Source: a virus
Taxonomy: Duplodnaviria > Caudoviricetes
IMG/VR virus record: IMGVR_UViG_3300028591_000198
Span: 4,213 to 68,212 of that record
Direction: 5' to 3' (one strand)
Length of the DNA stretch: 64,000 nt
Part shown: positions 9,009 to 50,678 of the stretch, piece by piece
Layout of the letters: each line of letters opens with the position of its first letter
Numbering within the stretch: the first letter of the stretch is position 1
The notes under the pieces: model-generated
The model's database searches: none
What the model was told of the DNA's origin: nothing
The model's input: the letters and a program-made list of their open reading frames with translations, nothing else
Made by a program: the position numbers and the translations under genes

Positions 9009-9043
9009 TTCCTTCTATTCATATTAATAATATATATATGAAA
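9009..9043 (-). promoter_or_regulatory. putative early promoter, copy 1
   Basis: TTTCATATATATATTATTAATATGAATAGAAGGAA, 34/35 identical to 24168-24202. Confidence 0.7.
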
Positions 9044-24167: not shown

Positions 24168-24202
24168 TTTCATATATATATAATTAATATGAATAGAAGG
24201 AA
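24168..24202 (+). promoter_or_regulatory. putative early promoter, copy 2
   Basis: TTTCATATATATATAATTAATATGAATAGAAGGAA. Confidence 0.7.
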
Positions 24203-39413: not shown

Positions 39414-40379
39414 TTATAATTCATCACGATCTTTGATTGGAAAAGACACCATTAATTCATCAATTGCTCGTTTTGCTTGACGATCAACCGATTTAATCTT
39501 TGTTGTAGGATTTGGATAATCTGGCAAGATTTCTCCCGTGGAAGATAATGTGACGAATTCTGTATCTGTATCGGAATCACCAACAACGACATATGTTGTG
39601 GGTTCGTCTGATTCAAATTTTGTTGAACCGACGATAGAACCTTCATCAACAATATTATTCAAAACATCTGATGCTTGGTCCAAATCAGCTGTTGGATAAT
39701 TTCCATTGGCCGGAATATTTGATGTATCCGTGTCAGGAATATTATCAAAGATAGAATCCATGATACTTCTACCGACATCAAATGCAGAAGCACTTCTTCC
39801 AGGAACTGTGTTAGCGGCTGCAGGACCACCACCAGTTTGTTGTTGTTTAATCTTCAATTCAGCAATACTTTTGCGAACTGCAATTTGTTCTTTCTCAATA
39901 TTTGCCAATGTGGAACGAGCTGATGTCAATGCTTGCATGGCTTCAATGTCATCCTCGTTTACACCAAACTTGCCTTTGTCTGTCAGACTTTCCATAAATT
40001 TCCTCTCGAAAATCTTAATTGTTTTTGCCTGATCAGCAGCAAGTGTTTTCAATGCAGCAATATTTGTTGTGAAGATTTTATTCGGATCCAGTTTGTCACG
40101 AAGCGGACCCATCTCCATTCCCGCATACAGTGATTGCATGATGTCTGATGAAGCTCCCCAATGGGCACTTGCGTATGGTGCAATAAACCCATCCATATTC
40201 GGATTGAACCGTTGTCTCAATACGAGTTGATTATAACGATCCTCCCATGTAGATGGATCCGCAGCAGAATTTGTCCAAACATCTCCATTATCATGACCGG
40301 TTACAATATCGAAATTTCCACTATCTTCAAATGGTTGATGTTCGTTCATCATTCTCATTGCATCTAATGTTGAACTCAT
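39414..40379 (-). CDS. hypothetical protein
   Basis: RBS AAAGGAG before ATG 40379; central coiled coil. Confidence 0.75.
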   Translation of the reverse strand: MSSTLDAMRMMNEHQPFEDSGNFDIVTGHDNGDVWTNSAADPSTWEDRYNQLVLRQRFNPNMDGFIAPYASAHWGASSDIMQSLYAGMEMGPLRDKLDPNKIFTTNIAALKTLAADQAKTIKIFERKFMESLTDKGKFGVNEDDIEAMQALTSARSTLANIEKEQIAVRKSIAELKIKQQQTGGGPAAANTVPGRSASAFDVGRSIMDSIFDNIPDTDTSNIPANGNYPTADLDQASDVLNNIVDEGSIVGSTKFESDEPTTYVVVGDSDTDTEFVTLSSTGEILPDYPNPTTKIKSVDRQAKRAIDELMVSFPIKDRDEL

Positions 40380-40560
40380 ATCAGAATCTCCTTTCATCAA
40401 AAAAAAAAATAAATCGATTTCTCGATTATATTGTTGAGTTTCTAAAAATGAATAAACCATAAGGATTTATCGTCGCGAAAAACGTAATCCTATTCATTCT
40501 TTTTTATCATTTTTATTCATTTTCCCTATATCTAATATAACATATGAATCCTGGCTCCGC

Positions 40561-40584
40561 CAGATTAAAAATATACATATGAAA
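40561..40584 (-). promoter_or_regulatory. putative early-type promoter, copy 3
   Basis: TTTCATATGTATATTTTTAATCTG. Confidence 0.5.
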
Positions 40585-44535: not shown

Positions 44536-45159
44536 TTGTTTATGAGAACATCCGCAAAGAAATTCATTGAAGAGTCCTTTGACTATCTGGAGACATTAAC
44601 AGAAGTGTCATTGGATCGTTCGGTGAATCGATATTTATTGGAACACATCGCACATGGATTGATGATCTTTGGTGGTGTCGATGGATTCATAAAGAATGTT
44701 GATAAATGGATCCGGACATTGGTAAAGACATATCCGGAATTGGGATTCGATCATCAGTCCAATCAGATTGTTGCGGTTATTGATTATACCGATCAAGTTG
44801 TCGTGATTGATGAATCGTTGTATATCGATCTGACATACGTTATTAATATACAAAAGAAATATGGTATGCTTGTCTCTTATGATGGAAAGACTGTAACGAT
44901 CGCGAGATTCTTTGAAGATATTCAGAGAAAATATCCACAAATCAAAGACCGTTATAAAGGTCTCGGTTCTTCTGATGCAAAGGTATCAAAAGAAATCATC
45001 ATGGATCCAGCAACAAGAAGAATCTTCCGAGTTGATGCGTCTGACGTAAATGTCATGAGAATATATGATACATTAATCGGAAAGAACAAGGAAGATATTC
45101 AAGCAAGAAAAGAAATGATCATGAACTTTGAATGGAAACCGTCCGACATCGATACATAA
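44536..45159 (+). CDS. gyrB: type IIA topoisomerase B subunit, C-terminal part
   Basis: RYKGLGS...MDPATRR...ARKEMI, the conserved GyrB tail; own RBS GAGGAGG. Confidence 0.85.
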   Translation: MFMRTSAKKFIEESFDYLETLTEVSLDRSVNRYLLEHIAHGLMIFGGVDGFIKNVDKWIRTLVKTYPELGFDHQSNQIVAVIDYTDQVVVIDESLYIDLTYVINIQKKYGMLVSYDGKTVTIARFFEDIQRKYPQIKDRYKGLGSSDAKVSKEIIMDPATRRIFRVDASDVNVMRIYDTLIGKNKEDIQARKEMIMNFEWKPSDIDT

Positions 45160-45172
45160 GGAGGAATGTACA

Positions 45173-47173
45173 ATGGATTGGATGCATGATGCAAAATATG
45201 AACTGTTTGATGATCTGATCAATTTAGACGAGATCACAACAGAAGAACAGATTCATGAATTATTGGGAGATCCTATTGTATTAGAACGATACGTGAATAA
45301 CTATGACTGGTTGTTCAATCGTGTTGTTGGTATTGCGGAACTTTGTTGGGGTAACAAGGATAAACATGGAAAGAAACTCCAGACGGTTCCGATTAAACTG
45401 AAAATCCATATCGATGACAAAGAGACGAAGGAAACATATGCAACACAACTGAATCGTTTGATGTATACATTATCATTCTTGCGTCCAATCATTATGTATC
45501 TGGACGATATCAAGATCGAAGATTTCTTGCTGAGAAATTATCTGACTGAAAAAGAACGTTGTAAGATTCAAGATAAGATCGTTCGTGTATTACAACAATT
45601 CGGAACTCCAATCACGGAAATCCAAGAAAAGATGGCTCGGTTATCTTTGGATTGGAAGATGTTAATGATTGATTTCTCCAAGGCAGATATGCAAGTATAC
45701 ACTGCAGAAAATCTGTTCTTAAATCATTATCGTGATTCTGAAGTCATCCGGGAAATCAATAATACCGAGTATCCTCCTGATATGCAAACTGCGGATATCG
45801 TTGAGGAGAATGCCAGACGTTATCAAATTCTGGAACAGGTGATGGTTGAACGCGGTAATCCGTTCTTCATCAATAACAAGTATACGAAACTGGTGAAACC
45901 GAAACAGATGGAGGAATTATATATCAACTTCTCCCAGATTCCGGATGGAAGAAATATCATTCCTGTCATCATGAATGGTAATGGATTCCGTGCTGGATAT
46001 CATTCATTACCAGTATTCTATACAGGTGCAATTGCAGCACGTGTTCCTGATATTATGAATAAGGATTACATGGGTGCTGCCGGATACTTCAACAGAAACT
46101 TGATGATGTTGGCATATGGCACAGTTTCATCAACGGTATGGGATTGCGGTTCTCAAAATCCAATCCCAATTGATATTGATGAAACCATGCTCGAGATGTT
46201 TGACGGAAGATACTATTATGAAGAAAAGGGTTCTGGAATTCTGAAGGTTCTGCATAAGGATGATAAATCCAAACTCGGGAAGAAATTGTGGTTCCGTTCT
46301 CCGTGTACATGTAATCTGAACGAAGACGTTTGCCATGTATGTTATGGTCAACGCGCTTTGAAAGTCGGAGACTTGAAAGGCGGTTTCATCTATACAACAG
46401 AATTGATGACTTCTCGAGTTTCACAGAATATACTTTCTGCAAAGCATCTGTTGAAATCAAATGCGGAAAAGATTGAGTATTCGGAATCGTTTGATAAATT
46501 CTTCGTGGTTGATATGTCTACCATCATTCCAAAGGATGATAAACGATTCGATATTTATATCCGTGAGGATTATCTGGATAATATCTCCGAACAGTTCACA
46601 TGTTATATCGGAAAAGATATGATTCCTGTAACGATTTCAAATTATGCATCCATCTCTATTTCGGAAAGTATACTGGATAAATGCAAGGATGTTGTCATTG
46701 ATGATGTCACATATTACAAGATTACATCCCATAAGATATTGGATGCAGGTGGACAATTTGCAGTCGTCATCCCGATTAATATCATGATGACAAAGAAGTA
46801 TATGGATATCATGAAACTGTTTGAATCCGATATCACAAAATTCCAAACCATATCCGAAATTGTCATGGCTCTTGCAAGAATGTGTCATGGATTGATTCCG
46901 ATTCTTTCAACACACGGAGAGATCCTGATTGGACATCAGATTCGTTCTGTAGAGAATCGTCTGTTACGTCCTGATTGGACTGTGCCGGATCAGCAGTATC
47001 AGATTATGAGATTGAAAACCGTCCTTCAGAATATTGAATCGTTCTCTACCGCGATGTCATTTGAACAAACCAAACATCATTTGTATCATTCGATATTTGA
47101 TGAACGAAATGAAATCAACCGTGTCGGTCCTCGTGGATTCATTGATTTCATGTTTGGTGAGGAAACATTGTGA
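45173..47173 (+). CDS. rpoC: phage multisubunit RNA polymerase, beta' C-terminal subunit
   Basis: Bridge-helix-like AGYFNRNL, Zn site FRSPCTC...VCHVCYG, trigger-loop-like QNILSAKH. Confidence 0.85.
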   Translation: MDWMHDAKYELFDDLINLDEITTEEQIHELLGDPIVLERYVNNYDWLFNRVVGIAELCWGNKDKHGKKLQTVPIKLKIHIDDKETKETYATQLNRLMYTLSFLRPIIMYLDDIKIEDFLLRNYLTEKERCKIQDKIVRVLQQFGTPITEIQEKMARLSLDWKMLMIDFSKADMQVYTAENLFLNHYRDSEVIREINNTEYPPDMQTADIVEENARRYQILEQVMVERGNPFFINNKYTKLVKPKQMEELYINFSQIPDGRNIIPVIMNGNGFRAGYHSLPVFYTGAIAARVPDIMNKDYMGAAGYFNRNLMMLAYGTVSSTVWDCGSQNPIPIDIDETMLEMFDGRYYYEEKGSGILKVLHKDDKSKLGKKLWFRSPCTCNLNEDVCHVCYGQRALKVGDLKGGFIYTTELMTSRVSQNILSAKHLLKSNAEKIEYSESFDKFFVVDMSTIIPKDDKRFDIYIREDYLDNISEQFTCYIGKDMIPVTISNYASISISESILDKCKDVVIDDVTYYKITSHKILDAGGQFAVVIPINIMMTKKYMDIMKLFESDITKFQTISEIVMALARMCHGLIPILSTHGEILIGHQIRSVENRLLRPDWTVPDQQYQIMRLKTVLQNIESFSTAMSFEQTKHHLYHSIFDERNEINRVGPRGFIDFMFGEETL

Positions 47174-47183
47174 GGTGACGAGA

Positions 47184-48248
47184 ATGAATAATTATTCTGT
47201 AAAACAAGTTTCATCTGGCCCATTGACAGGATTGATCAAACCGAAGTACAAATGGATTGCAGCAAATCTCGGGGAACTATATGACGTTCCCCGGGGTTTG
47301 GATGTATTCATTGATTTCAATACACTCATCAAAGCATTATCTGGATATCAGAAATATCTGAATTATCTACCATTTGCAGGACAAGATGTTCAGGTAGATT
47401 TGATTTCTTCATTCTTATCAACATTAAACCATTGGAAGAATTTCACAAAGAAATGGGATAATGTTCGAATCATCGGAATCATGAATTCATTCGAAATGGA
47501 TGAGAATATTGCAGAACGTTCTGTGCTTAAATCGTATCTGGTTCCACATGTTCATATGTATAAGAATGATCGATTTAATCAATTCACATATTTCGTGAAT
47601 GAATCTGTCAAGAGTGTTCAGACCATTCTGAAGTATGTTCCGAACATGTATCTGATTTCATGTGATCAATTCGATTCCTATATGATTCCAAATGTGTTAG
47701 ACGATTATGAACACAGCGGAAGAAAACGTATTGTCATATCCGGAAATTCATTGATGACAAATTATCATTACATGCCGAACACAAAAATCATCTACGCGAA
47801 ATATCGATATAAAGGTATGCAACAATTGACAAATCCTCTTGACATTGTTCAATCCATCACAAAGGTTGATGAAGATATCGTTGAAGAATTTACCAAGAAC
47901 GAAGTATTCTATAATTTATTGAATACAATCGTCGGTGATTTTGATCGAGGTATTGTTGGATTGACTCAAATCGGTATCACGACATTTGCATATAATCTGT
48001 TGAGAGGTGTCGAACAAAATCGAATCCATGAGAATCCAAAGAGTGTTGAATCATGTTTACCGGTTATCGATAAACCATATCACGATTATATTTTGAAATC
48101 ATATCCGTTGGTTGACATTCATCAACATACAAAGATGATTCCAAAATCATCCATACAGAACGTGAAATCAAATATGATTGACATGGTTGATATTGATGGA
48201 CTGAGAAGTCTATCTATTGATGGTCTGAACTTGCTTGAATTGCTATAA
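47184..48248 (+). CDS. 5'-3' exonuclease/flap nuclease (T4 RNase H-like)
   Basis: N-terminal VFIDFNTL and H3TH-like IVGDFDRGIVGLTQIG. Confidence 0.6.
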   Translation: MNNYSVKQVSSGPLTGLIKPKYKWIAANLGELYDVPRGLDVFIDFNTLIKALSGYQKYLNYLPFAGQDVQVDLISSFLSTLNHWKNFTKKWDNVRIIGIMNSFEMDENIAERSVLKSYLVPHVHMYKNDRFNQFTYFVNESVKSVQTILKYVPNMYLISCDQFDSYMIPNVLDDYEHSGRKRIVISGNSLMTNYHYMPNTKIIYAKYRYKGMQQLTNPLDIVQSITKVDEDIVEEFTKNEVFYNLLNTIVGDFDRGIVGLTQIGITTFAYNLLRGVEQNRIHENPKSVESCLPVIDKPYHDYILKSYPLVDIHQHTKMIPKSSIQNVKSNMIDMVDIDGLRSLSIDGLNLLELL

Positions 48249-48253
48249 ACATA

Positions 48254-48287
48254 TAAGATTATTATGCGGGTAAGATTATTATGCGGG
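48254..48287 (+). repeat. 17-bp perfect tandem duplication
   Basis: TAAGATTATTATGCGGG twice, overlapping the left arm of a hairpin. Confidence 0.9.
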
Positions 48288-48306
48288 GCTGTCCGCCCCG
48301 CATAAT
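48278..48306. repeat. GGGGC/GCCCC hairpin repeat
   Basis: ATTATGCGGGGC-tgtcc-GCCCCGCATAAT. Confidence 0.85.
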
Positions 48307-48308
48307 CT

Positions 48309-48395
48309 CATGAATTTGGCAATGCATGTCAGTGTGTACCACTGGTCGACAAAAGTCGTACCAAATCCATACACAGCTGTAGTTTGCATTTCATT
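48309..48395. ncRNA. candidate structured small RNA D
   Basis: Nested stems AATGCA/TGCATT, TGTGTA/TACACA and CGAC-aaaa-GTCG. Confidence 0.35.
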
Positions 48396-48396
48396 T

Positions 48397-48420
48397 TTTC
48401 ATATGTATATAATTAATGTG
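48397..48420 (+). promoter_or_regulatory. putative early promoter, copy 5
   Basis: TTTCATATGTATATAATTAATGTG. Confidence 0.65.
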
Positions 48421-48422
48421 TA

Positions 48423-48663
48423 GCAAAGGGAATCATCAAGTCATGCAATCTCGCATAGAGGAGATGATAGCATGTTTAGAATTGATCACGAAACATCAAC
48501 AAGAATCGAACGGATCATTCGTTTGATGGAATCCGGAAATATCCGGATCAATAACACTGAACCCTCTGCACCACCAGAGGTTCAAGAACTCGTCGATGAA
48601 GAACAACGGCTGATAGAATACAGCCGTTCAATCGTATCAGCATGACTTGATTTATCCCTTTGC
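48423..48663 (+). ncRNA. panhandle-closed leader RNA E
   Basis: 48423-48446 pairs with 48640-48663 (12 bp + 3x3 loop + 9 bp); internal hairpins are also present. Confidence 0.6.
48472..48645 (+). CDS. 57-aa micro-protein MFRIDHETSTRIERIIRLMESG...SRSIVSA
   Basis: RBS GAGGAG; read by hand; the stop codon lies within the panhandle. Confidence 0.65.
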   Translation: MFRIDHETSTRIERIIRLMESGNIRINNTEPSAPPEVQELVDEEQRLIEYSRSIVSA

Positions 48664-48691
48664 AAATATGTTTTGAAAGTGAGGAATTAAA

Positions 48692-49891
48692 ATGGAAAAT
48701 GAAAATCATTCATGGGCTCCGCCAAAGATGAAATTGGTAGAAAATATGATTTCCACCATAATTGGAAAGAGTGCAAAAGCAATCACAAACTTTGCACTAT
48801 ACAAACTGGATTTTTCATATTTTCAGTGGAGTATCAACTGGGAATGTATGATGAAATATTTCAAACATATCCCAGGTGATATTCAAGAATATCGGACAAA
48901 CGAGGTGAGACAAAAAACAATAGAATTTGAATACGGCACGCCATCCGCTTGTGGGAAATTCTATGATGTTATCATATGGGATAGAATGCCCATTATATTG
49001 GTAATGGAAAATATCCCCGACAAAGATGGAATGATTCGTAGAAGTTACATCCTGTACACAGTATACACAAAAAAGGGTGCACGTGTTCTGCGAAACTTTG
49101 TCAGACAATTGATCAAAGACTCACAAGAATATGACAAAAAACAATCGAAGATTACTTGGAGACAAGTAATAAACGGTTGTAATTCGTTGATCCGCCGAGA
49201 CAAACCACAAAGAACGTGGAATGACGTATTCATCAAAGATGTTGATCAGAAGCGAATTGATGAATCGGTTCATAAATTCCTGGAATCTGAAACATGGTAT
49301 CATGATCATAAGATACCATATCACTTTGGGATACTATTGCACGGAAATCCCGGAACAGGAAAATCTTCCGTGGTCCAAGCAATTATAAACTCATTCCCAT
49401 GTGATGTATATTATGTCACACCAGGATGTCTCGGTGAGTTCATTACAAACTGCTCTTGGATAAATACTGACAATCATATCCAGACCAGAGTCATTATCAT
49501 CGAAGACGTCGACACAGAATCGTTCGTAGAGTCTCGTGAAAAGAAGACGAATGATGACGACAAATTTTCATTCAAGCCGAAGTTCAGTCTCGGAACGTTA
49601 CTGAATTTCATGGACGGTATGGGAAATCCCCAAGACACAATTTGGATTCTGACAACGAATCATATCGATAAACTAGATGACGCTCTGATTCGTCCTGGAA
49701 GAATAGATCTCTGTGTTGAGGTTGGATACATTGACAATGAAATTCTATTGAAGTTTATGAGGTTCCATTACGGAACTGAATCACTTCCGATGGGATTTCA
49801 AATACGAGCCGGTTTGACATGTGCAGAATTAAATACAAAAGTCATGACCGGTTATACAGAACAACAGCTGCTGGAATATGTGGCTGAATAA
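48692..49891 (+). CDS. AAA+ ATPase, BCS1-like
   Basis: GILLHGNPGTGKS, IIEDVD, SLGTLLNFMDG, TTNH...ALIRPGRID. Confidence 0.85.
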   Translation: MENENHSWAPPKMKLVENMISTIIGKSAKAITNFALYKLDFSYFQWSINWECMMKYFKHIPGDIQEYRTNEVRQKTIEFEYGTPSACGKFYDVIIWDRMPIILVMENIPDKDGMIRRSYILYTVYTKKGARVLRNFVRQLIKDSQEYDKKQSKITWRQVINGCNSLIRRDKPQRTWNDVFIKDVDQKRIDESVHKFLESETWYHDHKIPYHFGILLHGNPGTGKSSVVQAIINSFPCDVYYVTPGCLGEFITNCSWINTDNHIQTRVIIIEDVDTESFVESREKKTNDDDKFSFKPKFSLGTLLNFMDGMGNPQDTIWILTTNHIDKLDDALIRPGRIDLCVEVGYIDNEILLKFMRFHYGTESLPMGFQIRAGLTCAELNTKVMTGYTEQQLLEYVAE

Positions 49892-49917
49892 ATTTTATAA
49901 AGTAAAGGAGAACAAAA

Positions 49918-50610
49918 ATGGAGTACATTACAAAATTGAATAAAATGGGAGTCATGGTTTATAACCGCCCCGACATTTATGATGGCGAGAACAAGTCCAT
50001 CGCCATCATCATCGATGAGCGAGAAGACTACATTAAGATGAAAGATGCAATCACATTCATTGCATCAACAGAATGCATTGAAGCATTCATCGATATAATC
50101 TTCGAAGATTATTCAGAAGGCTTCATCACAGATATAATCAAAGGAATCAATGAATATCTGTATGATCATTCTCGAGTAATTAAAGGAAACAAATTCTCAC
50201 CAAAGGAATGGTGGGAAGCGGTTATTCCTATGATAGCATTGGCATTCGATCGCTATGGAATCGATTTATCAGAATGCGATCATACAGAATACATAGTCGC
50301 AAAGAAGCGGCTAGGTGGACGGAAAGGCATTGTCACCGCAGTAAAAAATGCGCTTGAAAATCAATGTGCATCCAGATGTGCATTGTGCGAACATTGCCGC
50401 ATCAATATCAATGGCGAATATTATTGTAAACGCATCATAGTTGAATCCGATAGAACAAACGGGAGCATTCTTGCAAAAATGCTTACCGGTAATAAATTTG
50501 CATCTAATTTGTGTTCCGATATTGTCGGACCGAATGATGATTGTGAATGCTTCTCGTCCAGAGACAAATCTCTGATGAAGAAGCTTCGTCATTTTGTGAT
50601 GGATGTTTGA
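49918..50610 (+). CDS. hypothetical protein with Cys-rich C-terminus
   Basis: RBS AAAGGAG; CASRCALCEHC...C...C. Confidence 0.75.
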   Translation: MEYITKLNKMGVMVYNRPDIYDGENKSIAIIIDEREDYIKMKDAITFIASTECIEAFIDIIFEDYSEGFITDIIKGINEYLYDHSRVIKGNKFSPKEWWEAVIPMIALAFDRYGIDLSECDHTEYIVAKKRLGGRKGIVTAVKNALENQCASRCALCEHCRININGEYYCKRIIVESDRTNGSILAKMLTGNKFASNLCSDIVGPNDDCECFSSRDKSLMKKLRHFVMDV

Positions 50611-50612
50611 TG

Positions 50613-50641
50613 AGAAGGGACCTTTCGGTCCCTTCTTTTTT
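50613..50641 (+). terminator. intrinsic terminator
   Basis: AGAAGGGACC-tttc-GGTCCCTTCT plus T-run. Confidence 0.85.
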
Positions 50642-50665
50642 GTATACCAATAATATAGTATCGAA

Positions 50666-50678
50666 AAACGATTTCATA
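50666..50678 (+). promoter_or_regulatory. putative late promoter AAACG-N6-TA
   Basis: AAACG atttca TA ahead of the tail-fibre cluster. Confidence 0.45.

Follow-up and report, generated by a model that had tools for sequence, protein, structure and literature searches.

The stretch of DNA analysed here, referred to as the window, comprises 64 kb (64,000 nucleotides, nt) out of a 68-kb IMG/VR virus record (IMGVR_UViG_3300028591_000198) whose completeness is estimated at 25%. At the predicted start of an early transcript it carries a small gene of 57 codons, the mini-gene, that is enclosed by two long complementary arms, a structure which will be referred to as the panhandle. Positions 48423–48446 (5′ arm, plus strand) pair with positions 48640–48663 (3′ arm, plus strand) via 9 bp, a 3 × 3 internal loop and 12 bp, amounting to 21 bp in total. 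The 5′ arm consists of a lower strand (48423–48431), a loop strand (48432–48434) and an upper strand (48435–48446), and the 3′ arm correspondingly of an upper strand (48640–48651), a loop strand (48652–48654) and a lower strand (48655–48663). The basal stem GCAAAGGGA/TCCCTTTGC has 9 bp, the internal loop reads ATC/TTA, and the upper stem ATCAAGTCATGC/GCATGACTTGAT is a perfect helix of 12 bp. The arms are separated by 193 nt, and the helix encloses a Shine-Dalgarno (SD) sequence, the open reading frame (ORF) and four hairpins within the coding sequence, located on the plus strand at 48505–48527 (10 bp), 48531–48548 (7 bp), 48558–48584 (5 + 5 bp) and 48605–48628 (8 bp). This anatomy agrees with a sequence-only reading of the same DNA, which had described a 21-bp 5′–3′ panhandle with these arms and this internal loop around a ribosome binding site and a 57-amino-acid gene. 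The three internal stems listed there were likewise found, but the list was incomplete, as the 10-bp stem at 48505–48527 has to be added to it.

An arm match with at most three mismatches was obtained in none of 100 dinucleotide shuffles of the window (0/100), and among the window's inverted repeats up to 1500 nt apart the panhandle is the sole arm pair of at least 20 nt with more than 85% complementarity. The first 27 transcribed bases form a duplex with the downstream sequence of −34.5 kcal/mol (z = −7.4 against their own shuffles), compared to a background of −16.4 ± 3.6 kcal/mol at 792 positions of the window, the best of which gave −31.9 kcal/mol, so that none (0/792) reached the value of the panhandle. 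The entire 241-nt unit has a minimum free energy (MFE) of −88.3 kcal/mol (z = −8.9), and the helix was retained with pair probabilities of 0.99 when it was folded in a 311-nt context including the start of the ATPase gene that follows. Chance is an unlikely explanation for the pairing. When the 12-bp upper arm was scrambled, the basal 9 bp still closed with a probability of 0.97 in an equilibrium model, which does not support the idea that the 12 extra base pairs make up for the length of the loop; this idea was rejected.

The panhandle is preceded by an early-promoter motif, CATATGTATATAATTAAT-GT-G (48400–48420, plus strand), which is composed of TATATAAT at 48406–48413, TAATGT at 48414–48419 and then G48420. 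The early promoter of the Bacillus phage AR9 has been defined experimentally as AAATATATATTAT-N6-G(+1) with the core TATATTAT, and is recognized by the injected virion polymerase (PMC5312081, Lavysh et al. 2017). The panhandle promoter fits the AR9 early pattern TATATWAT-N6-G. Since core, N6 and G all match, the transcript was placed to start at G48420, and by this analogy the helix would begin at +4, with +4 to +27 pairing with +221 to +244. The 5′ arm starts 3 nt downstream of the motif's conserved G, as had been noticed from the sequence alone. Five copies of the motif are present in the window, that of the panhandle and those at 24171(+), 9043(−), 40584(−) and 42639(+); one of them precedes gyrB, and AR9 gyrB likewise has an annotated early promoter. 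In five related records, the motif was found more often than a reversed-pattern control (15 vs 0, 14 vs 2, 8 vs 1, 6 vs 3 and 6 vs 2). From the likeness to AR9, the operon behind this promoter is predicted to be an early one made by the phage's virion-type multisubunit RNA polymerase. The earlier claim of a real 5′–3′ pairing at the start of an early transcript is thus borne out by the nonrandom pairing and by the AR9-type early promoter.

The mini-gene (P0001, 48472–48645, plus strand) has the SD sequence GAGGAG at 48458–48463 (plus strand), 8 nt before the ATG, with the 3′ half of the SD lying in a weak 5-bp hairpin (48448–48452/48461–48465). Its TGA stop codon (48643–48645) and the last two sense codons are situated within the 3′ arm of the panhandle. 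The product is charged and hydrophilic, without a hydrophobic span, and AlphaFold, based on two sequences, predicted two helices of the amphipathic type (residues 6–21 and 35–56) with a mean pLDDT score of 83. Only a single homologue, P0122, was found among 5.8 billion proteins; it is 95% identical, also has 57 codons and differs by the three conservative replacements E7D, R25Q and Q45R. Similarly, 96–97% identity was observed for ATPase variants of the same cluster. Placed on the panhandle fold, which is possible at the protein level only, one of the three replacements falls on an unpaired position, one changes A-U to G-U and one would break a C-G pair unless it is silently compensated. A profile of the mini-protein searched against 1.84 billion representatives returned P0122 only, plus spurious matches to long repetitive proteins; no Pfam or PHROG family and no usable match in the ESM Atlas were obtained, and none was present in IMG/VR. 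The codon-usage log-odds score was +0.09 in frame 0 compared to −0.25 and −0.29 in the other frames, a value that is reached by 2.6% of out-of-frame gene chunks and is low for real genes (7th percentile). The spacing of the SD sequence, the 57 codons kept in the 95% identical relative, the codon score of frame 0 and the predicted two-helix protein argue that the ORF is likely to be coding. The gene that had been recognized inside the helix is, on the same evidence of P0122 conservation, codon score and AlphaFold prediction, probably translated.

To trace the origin of the structure, loci of the ATPase family were taken from IMG/VR for five relatives (G001–G005). The gene upstream of the panhandle is 70% identical to that of G001 (47205–48248 compared to L006:1777–2826), and the two loci are therefore orthologous. 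In G001 (L005/L006), a stop codon is followed by a terminator hairpin rich in GC, the same promoter, G-CAAAGGGAGAAG, a loop of ~19 nt, CTTTTTCCCTTTAC, 34 nt and the ATG of the ATPase gene, so that a short hairpin AAAGGGA/TCCCTTT (CAAAGGGAGAAG...TTTTTCCCTTTAC) directly precedes the SD sequence and the gene. The spacing between the stem's end and the ATPase start has been kept, with 28 nt at the panhandle compared to 34 nt in G001. From this shared order of terminator, promoter, stem and ATPase we take the basal stem GCAAAGGGA/TCCCTTTGC to be orthologous to the short hairpin of G001. Promoter, short hairpin and ATPase gene follow each other in G002 and G005 as well, and in G003 the promoter is not present at the ATPase locus. 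Neither the mini-gene nor anything resembling the insert was found in any of the five relatives. A search for the exact arm patterns in IMG/VR gave no match, a profile of the upstream gene detected the same five relatives only in IMG/VR, and no close relatives of the ATPase were present in JGI metagenomes or GTDB genomes. AR9 g028, a 399-amino-acid AAA ATPase with an early promoter, was considered as an orthologue of the ATPase and rejected, the similarity being confined to the P-loop (BLASTP E = 0.23) and the neighbouring genes not matching. The simplest history that the compared loci suggest is an insertion of ~220 nt into the loop of the hairpin in the panhandle lineage, with the perfect 12-bp helix located just inside the old stem. 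The panhandle would accordingly represent the 5′-terminal hairpin of the clade, lengthened by 12 bp and holding in its loop an orphan gene specific to the lineage, and we consider this account of its anatomy and evolutionary origin to be highly probable.

Two further observations were made at this locus. The ATPase is just 37% identical to the syntenic G001 protein (48692–49891 compared to L006:2983–4206) and may either be fast-evolving or have been replaced by a paralogue. In G004 (L004:2474–2989), a different gene of ~148 amino acids separates the ATPase gene from the promoter and its hairpin at +1; judged from these loci, the slot behind the ATPase promoter appears to take in new genes repeatedly.

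Hairpins at the transcript start turned out to be common in the clade. The sample comprised 35 distinct promoter instances from the window and from 30 loci of G001–G005. In folds of +1 to +50, the first bases were paired in 32 of the 35 instances (91%), compared to 34–54% in windows located 60–500 nt downstream, whereas the overall folding energy of these leaders was no different from that of the downstream control windows. Perfect Watson-Crick stems of at least 6 bp starting at +1 or +2 occur in 31% of the instances, in contrast to ~3% downstream and ~10% in the AT-rich motif. The stems, which are 5–11 bp long in the relatives, are diverse in sequence (GAACAAGA/TCTTGTTC, GGATAGAA/TTCTATCC, GACAATA/TATTGTC and GCATAC/GTATGC) and have loops of 3–45 nt, and related copies change on both strands, such as GAATAGA/TCTATTC compared to GAATAAG/CTTATTC. 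The conserved feature is the paired state of the 5′ end, with neither the sequence nor the loop being fixed. Such varied stems with matched changes fit a role for any hairpin rather than a specific binding site. Long-distance closure was observed for the panhandle alone among the 35 instances; locus L179 was examined as a second long-range pairing and rejected, the complementarity being an internal palindrome in coding sequence. Hairpins at +1 are not mentioned in those transcriptome papers on AR9, phiKZ and 201phi2-1 that were searched. As a separate observation, the promoters at 9009–9043(−) and 24168–24202(+), although located 15 kb apart, are near-identical through the first ~12 transcribed bases (GAATAGAAGGAA), and their 5′ stems start at +4 and +14, later than those of most relatives.

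The best explanation overall, which we regard as probable on balance, is that the ancestral +1 hairpin has been enlarged around the mini-gene and protects the 5′ end of the early three-gene mRNA. According to this explanation, early transcripts of the clade would start with a stem-loop whose 5′ strand lies at or beside the first transcribed base, and at the locus studied here the short hairpin AAAGGGA/TCCCTTT would have gained the 57-codon gene in its loop plus 12 bp, resulting in the 21-bp panhandle. The helix would hide the 5′ triphosphate end and thereby shield the mRNA from 5′-end-dependent decay (RppH with RNase J1, RNase Y or RNase E). Pairing of the 5′ terminus is known to protect the ompA and papA mRNAs of E. 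coli and the aprE mRNA of B. subtilis, and RppH of B. subtilis needs at least two unpaired 5′ nucleotides (reviewed in PMC3997798). In the hbs mRNA of B. subtilis, a 14-bp interaction that joins the 5′ untranslated region (UTR) with the 3′ UTR modulates the access of RNases (PMC5737220, Braun, Durand & Condon 2017). Hairpins of any sequence and any loop that are anchored at the first base are what would be expected of a generic block to 5′-end-dependent decay. Pairing at the level of RNA is indicated, since arms 193 nt apart are implausible as a DNA cruciform. Since the 3′ arm contains the stop codon together with the two sense codons before it, a terminating ribosome would have to melt the upper helix, which might, speculatively, tie the lifetime of the mRNA or re-initiation to translation, and the freed 5′ arm could pair weakly with the SD sequence and spacer. 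The protective function of the panhandle taken by itself, argued by analogy with the mRNAs named above, appears plausible, a little short of probable. A wider proposal would see the 5′-end clamp as a selected, clade-wide signature of virion-polymerase transcripts in AR9-like jumbo phages, in which any +1 hairpin would mark or protect the first mRNAs after injection, would act at the RNA level and could hold a gene in its loop, with ribosomes terminating in the 3′ arm opening the clamp and so providing a timer for early genes; this we put forward tentatively, and consider it rather doubtful in its full form.

Several points weigh against protection of the 5′ end. If transcription starts at G48420, three bases at the transcript's beginning would be unpaired, which is borderline for RppH, and this start rests on the AR9 analogy. 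As the basal 9 bp close at 0.97 without the extension, the extension needs a reason of its own, which might be kinetics, ribosome traffic, substrate length for RNase III or a leftover of the insertion, and the halves of the stem could persist by descent alone after insertion into the loop. The pairing of the long helix is seen in a single DNA sequence. AR9 has the same type of promoter but unstructured leaders: the eight annotated early promoters in its first 50 kb are followed by AT-rich sequence without structure, which indicates that this class of polymerase in general does not need a hairpin. Finally, in 6–8 of the 35 instances (L185, L188, L198, L199, L173 and others, from G001, G002 and G004) the complementarity reaches back past the predicted +1 by 4–8 nt and enters the TTAAT box of the promoter, for example TTATTATGAATA/TATTCATAATAA, with a chance expectation of well below one case. 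Either the starts vary, or read-through RNAs fold as well, or the DNA itself matters; complementarity of this kind is not predicted by a pure RNA 5′-end model.

Among the competing explanations, cleavage by host RNase III is unlikely and yet deserves to be weighed first. The enzyme would cut the 21-bp helix and either free a mini-gene RNA of ~240 nt from the ATPase mRNA or trim both. Sites in T7 early RNA and the stems flanking rRNA are RNase III substrates. The panhandle resembles such classic substrates in that 9 + 12 bp (24 positions) surround a central internal loop, forming an irregular helix of about two turns as in T7 early RNA and in the 16S and 23S rRNA stems, and its arms flank a whole functional unit as those of rRNA do. 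Substrate length could also be the reason for the 12-bp extension, which according to the equilibrium model is unneeded for closure. The panhandle differs from the T7 and rRNA sites, however, in that its homologous stems in the relatives, with 5–11 bp, are too short for RNase III, so that processing cannot be the original role or one shared by the clade. Neither the four near-complete relatives nor the fragment studied here yielded an RNase III gene, and the host enzyme would therefore be required. Moreover, a cut would expose a monophosphate 5′ end on the ATPase mRNA without protection, contrary to the design seen throughout the clade. The proposal of the sequence-only reading that the mini-gene is excised or circularised as a stable RNA was not supported, the four relatives giving no RNase III gene and Rfam no match.

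Alternatively, the 12-bp repeat might be an insertion scar: a small cassette, either mobile or recombined, would have brought in the mini-gene, the repeat would form the ends of this cassette, and the pairing would be functionless. The absence of the mini-gene from all relatives at a conserved locus, the variable slot between promoter and ATPase, which in G004 holds the ~148-amino-acid gene, and the perfect inner repeat (48435–48446/48640–48651) just inside the ancestral stem would fit such an event. Nevertheless, the repeat is present in a single copy, the record and four relatives giving only chance matches with one mismatch, and neither a target-site duplication or direct repeat at either boundary nor a transposase or homing gene was detected. 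The panhandle shares terminal inverted repeats with elements resembling miniature inverted-repeat transposable elements, but has neither their target-site duplication nor their multiple copies. In addition, the 3′ repeat coincides with the end of the coding sequence, namely, its last two sense codons and stop codon, and is consequently part of the gene rather than of its flank. We consider a functionless scar to be quite unlikely.

Could the panhandle be a structured noncoding RNA, a stable 241-nt molecule with several hairpins closed by a terminal helix, in which the ORF is incidental? The coding region folds beyond the needs of the protein, being more stable than synonymous recodings with z = −3.2 when codons were resampled according to codon usage and z = −4.7 when its own synonymous codons were permuted, and it ranks in the top 4% of coding windows. 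RNA structure is probably an added constraint on this region, and the four internal hairpins and the z value of −8.9 of the whole unit point in the same direction. However, none of the 160-nt windows tiling the mini-gene region was among the 20 most structured of the window (GC-corrected MFE), and Rfam gave no match at gathering thresholds across the window and nothing but chance-level hits at E ≤ 10 in 48200–48800. The strong SD sequence at the correct distance, a codon bias that is positive in frame 0 only, the ORF length kept in the 95% identical relative with its three conservative replacements and the two confidently predicted helices all argue for a protein, and a noncoding RNA appears improbable.

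The sequence-only reading had also suggested that the mini-gene acts as a translation-coupled switch for the ATPase and had compared it with hok. In a switch of this kind, either a hok-like fold-back or its reverse, the 5′ arm would alternate between the 3′ arm and the SD sequence with its spacer, gating the mini-gene and, by coupling, the ATPase. An alternative fold of the first 60 nt indeed pairs ATCATC (48432–48437) with GATGAT (48463–48468), terminating ribosomes would displace the 3′ arm in which the stop codon lies, and the ATPase start follows 47 nt after the mini-gene stop. The alternative hairpin is weak, though, with −12.5 kcal/mol compared to −34.5 kcal/mol for the panhandle duplex, and the SD sequence of the ATPase begins 17 nt past the 3′ arm, beyond the helix, and has no pairing partner in the centroid fold of the 311-nt context, which makes coupling unlikely in its simple form. 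No convincing antisense promoter was found either. Good late sites of the phage read GAAAACG-N6-TA, whereas a search for an antisense or convergent late promoter gave just two near-matches on the minus strand (48672 and 48476), AACA-N6-CA, in which C replaces the conserved T, and no sigma-70-like antisense promoter stands out. The comparison with hok fails, as the protein is hydrophilic with two helices and no hydrophobic toxin, and its SD sequence is only half contained in a 5-bp hairpin. Overall, we regard a translational switch as very improbable. Least credible of all is a DNA-level promoter element, in which a hairpin or cruciform would aid initiation or escape of the virion polymerase as do the hairpin promoters of the phage N4 virion RNA polymerase: the complementarity running 4–8 nt upstream of the predicted start in L185, L188, L198, L199 and L173 would fit it, but loops of 3–45 nt, and of 193 nt at the panhandle, would disfavour extrusion from duplex DNA, the stems are found downstream of the conserved motif and not inside it, and AR9 has the same promoter type without hairpins.

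Returning to the surroundings of the panhandle, the content of the window fits an uncultured jumbo phage with its own multisubunit RNA polymerase. A homologue of the RNA polymerase β subunit is encoded at 45128–47173 (phrog_3015), and the window also codes for a split gyrB, an SbcC-like protein and many large orphan proteins. No tRNA or transfer-messenger RNA genes were found, and blastn of 47800–49900 against GenBank phages gave no match. The strong SD sequences give the impression, and no more than that, of a Firmicute-type host. Just before the panhandle region lies the conserved upstream gene (47205–48248, ~347 amino acids), which ends in a terminator-type GC hairpin, ATTATGCGGGGC/GCCCCGCATAAT (48278–48306, plus strand); a GC hairpin is found at the equivalent position in G001 and G002, too. 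The early operon spans ~2.2 kb and contains three genes, namely, the mini-gene, the AAA+ ATPase gene (48692–49891, plus strand; PF00004, phrog_7485) as second cistron with the SD sequence GAGG at 48681–48684 (plus strand) outside the helix, and a third cistron starting at 49918 (plus strand) that encodes 230 amino acids and has no family match. It is closed by an intrinsic terminator, GAGAAGGGACC-tttc-GGTCCCTTC plus a T-run (50612–50643, plus strand), and thus ends at 50643. The ATPase family is large, with members residing mostly on contigs of 200–280 kb.

Additional features were noticed in the vicinity of these genes. A 17-nt sequence, TAAGATTATTATGCGGG, is perfectly duplicated in tandem at 48254–48287 and overlaps the 5′ strand of the terminator hairpin of the upstream gene, providing two alternative 5′ partners for the single 3′ strand of that terminator. 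The 93-nt spacer between this terminator and the early promoter (48307–48399) is absent from G001 and G002 and folds as a long irregular hairpin (−25.8 kcal/mol, z = −3.2). A late-type motif, GAAAAACGATTTCATA, lies less than 25 nt past the operon terminator (region 50612–50678), ahead of the next gene cluster. Elsewhere in the window, a good late-type motif GAAAACG-N6-TA at 40481–40492(+) is located at the start of the minus-strand early gene 39414–40460 and points into the leader of this gene and into the early promoter at 40584(−); it could serve as a late antisense shut-off of the early transcript.

How jumbo phages keep alive their first transcripts, which an injected sigma-less polymerase produces at a time when no phage protein has yet been made, is little understood. 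The +1 hairpin, observed in 32 of 35 instances here and in none of the eight AR9 leaders examined, represents a simple and testable candidate for mRNA protection. The panhandle amounts to a natural experiment in this respect, as the distance of 193 nt between its arms separates a role at the RNA level from one at the DNA level. It also points to a new route by which a gene may be added to an operon, that is, inside the loop of a 5′ hairpin with the geometry of the leader kept. The practical value is modest; such hairpins could aid expression in Firmicute-type hosts as portable stabilisers of the 5′ end.

Compared to systems described previously, the panhandle may be understood as an enlarged form of a known stabilising interaction, either 5′-terminal or between 5′ and 3′ regions. 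Its promoter shares the core and spacing TATATWAT-N6-G with the early promoters of AR9, and as in AR9 many copies precede early-type genes including gyrB, whereas the panhandle clade shows conservation of N6 as well (TAATNT), followed by a hairpin at +1. The hok/Sok system with its fold-back inhibition (fbi) likewise pairs an mRNA end to end around an ORF of ~50 codons. The panhandle differs from it in encoding a hydrophilic product without a membrane helix, in its unsequestered SD sequence, in that no antisense RNA gene was found and in a 3′ arm that is not at the end of the transcript. Closer to the panhandle are the stabilisers of ompA, papA and aprE, in which a stem of any sequence lies within a few bases of the 5′ end before an SD-led gene, but here the two strands are 193 nt apart, a whole gene occupies the loop, the structure is tied to a virion-polymerase promoter class, and stabilisation would be an extension by analogy. 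As in hbs, a long-range pairing (14 bp in hbs and 21 bp in the panhandle) joins the leader to a region just past a small ORF. The hbs mRNA, however, is monocistronic with its 3′ partner in the 3′ UTR and its 5′ partner internal to a structured leader, whereas in the panhandle the stop codon falls within the 3′ arm, after which come two further cistrons, and the 5′ arm adjoins the 5′ end of the predicted transcript.

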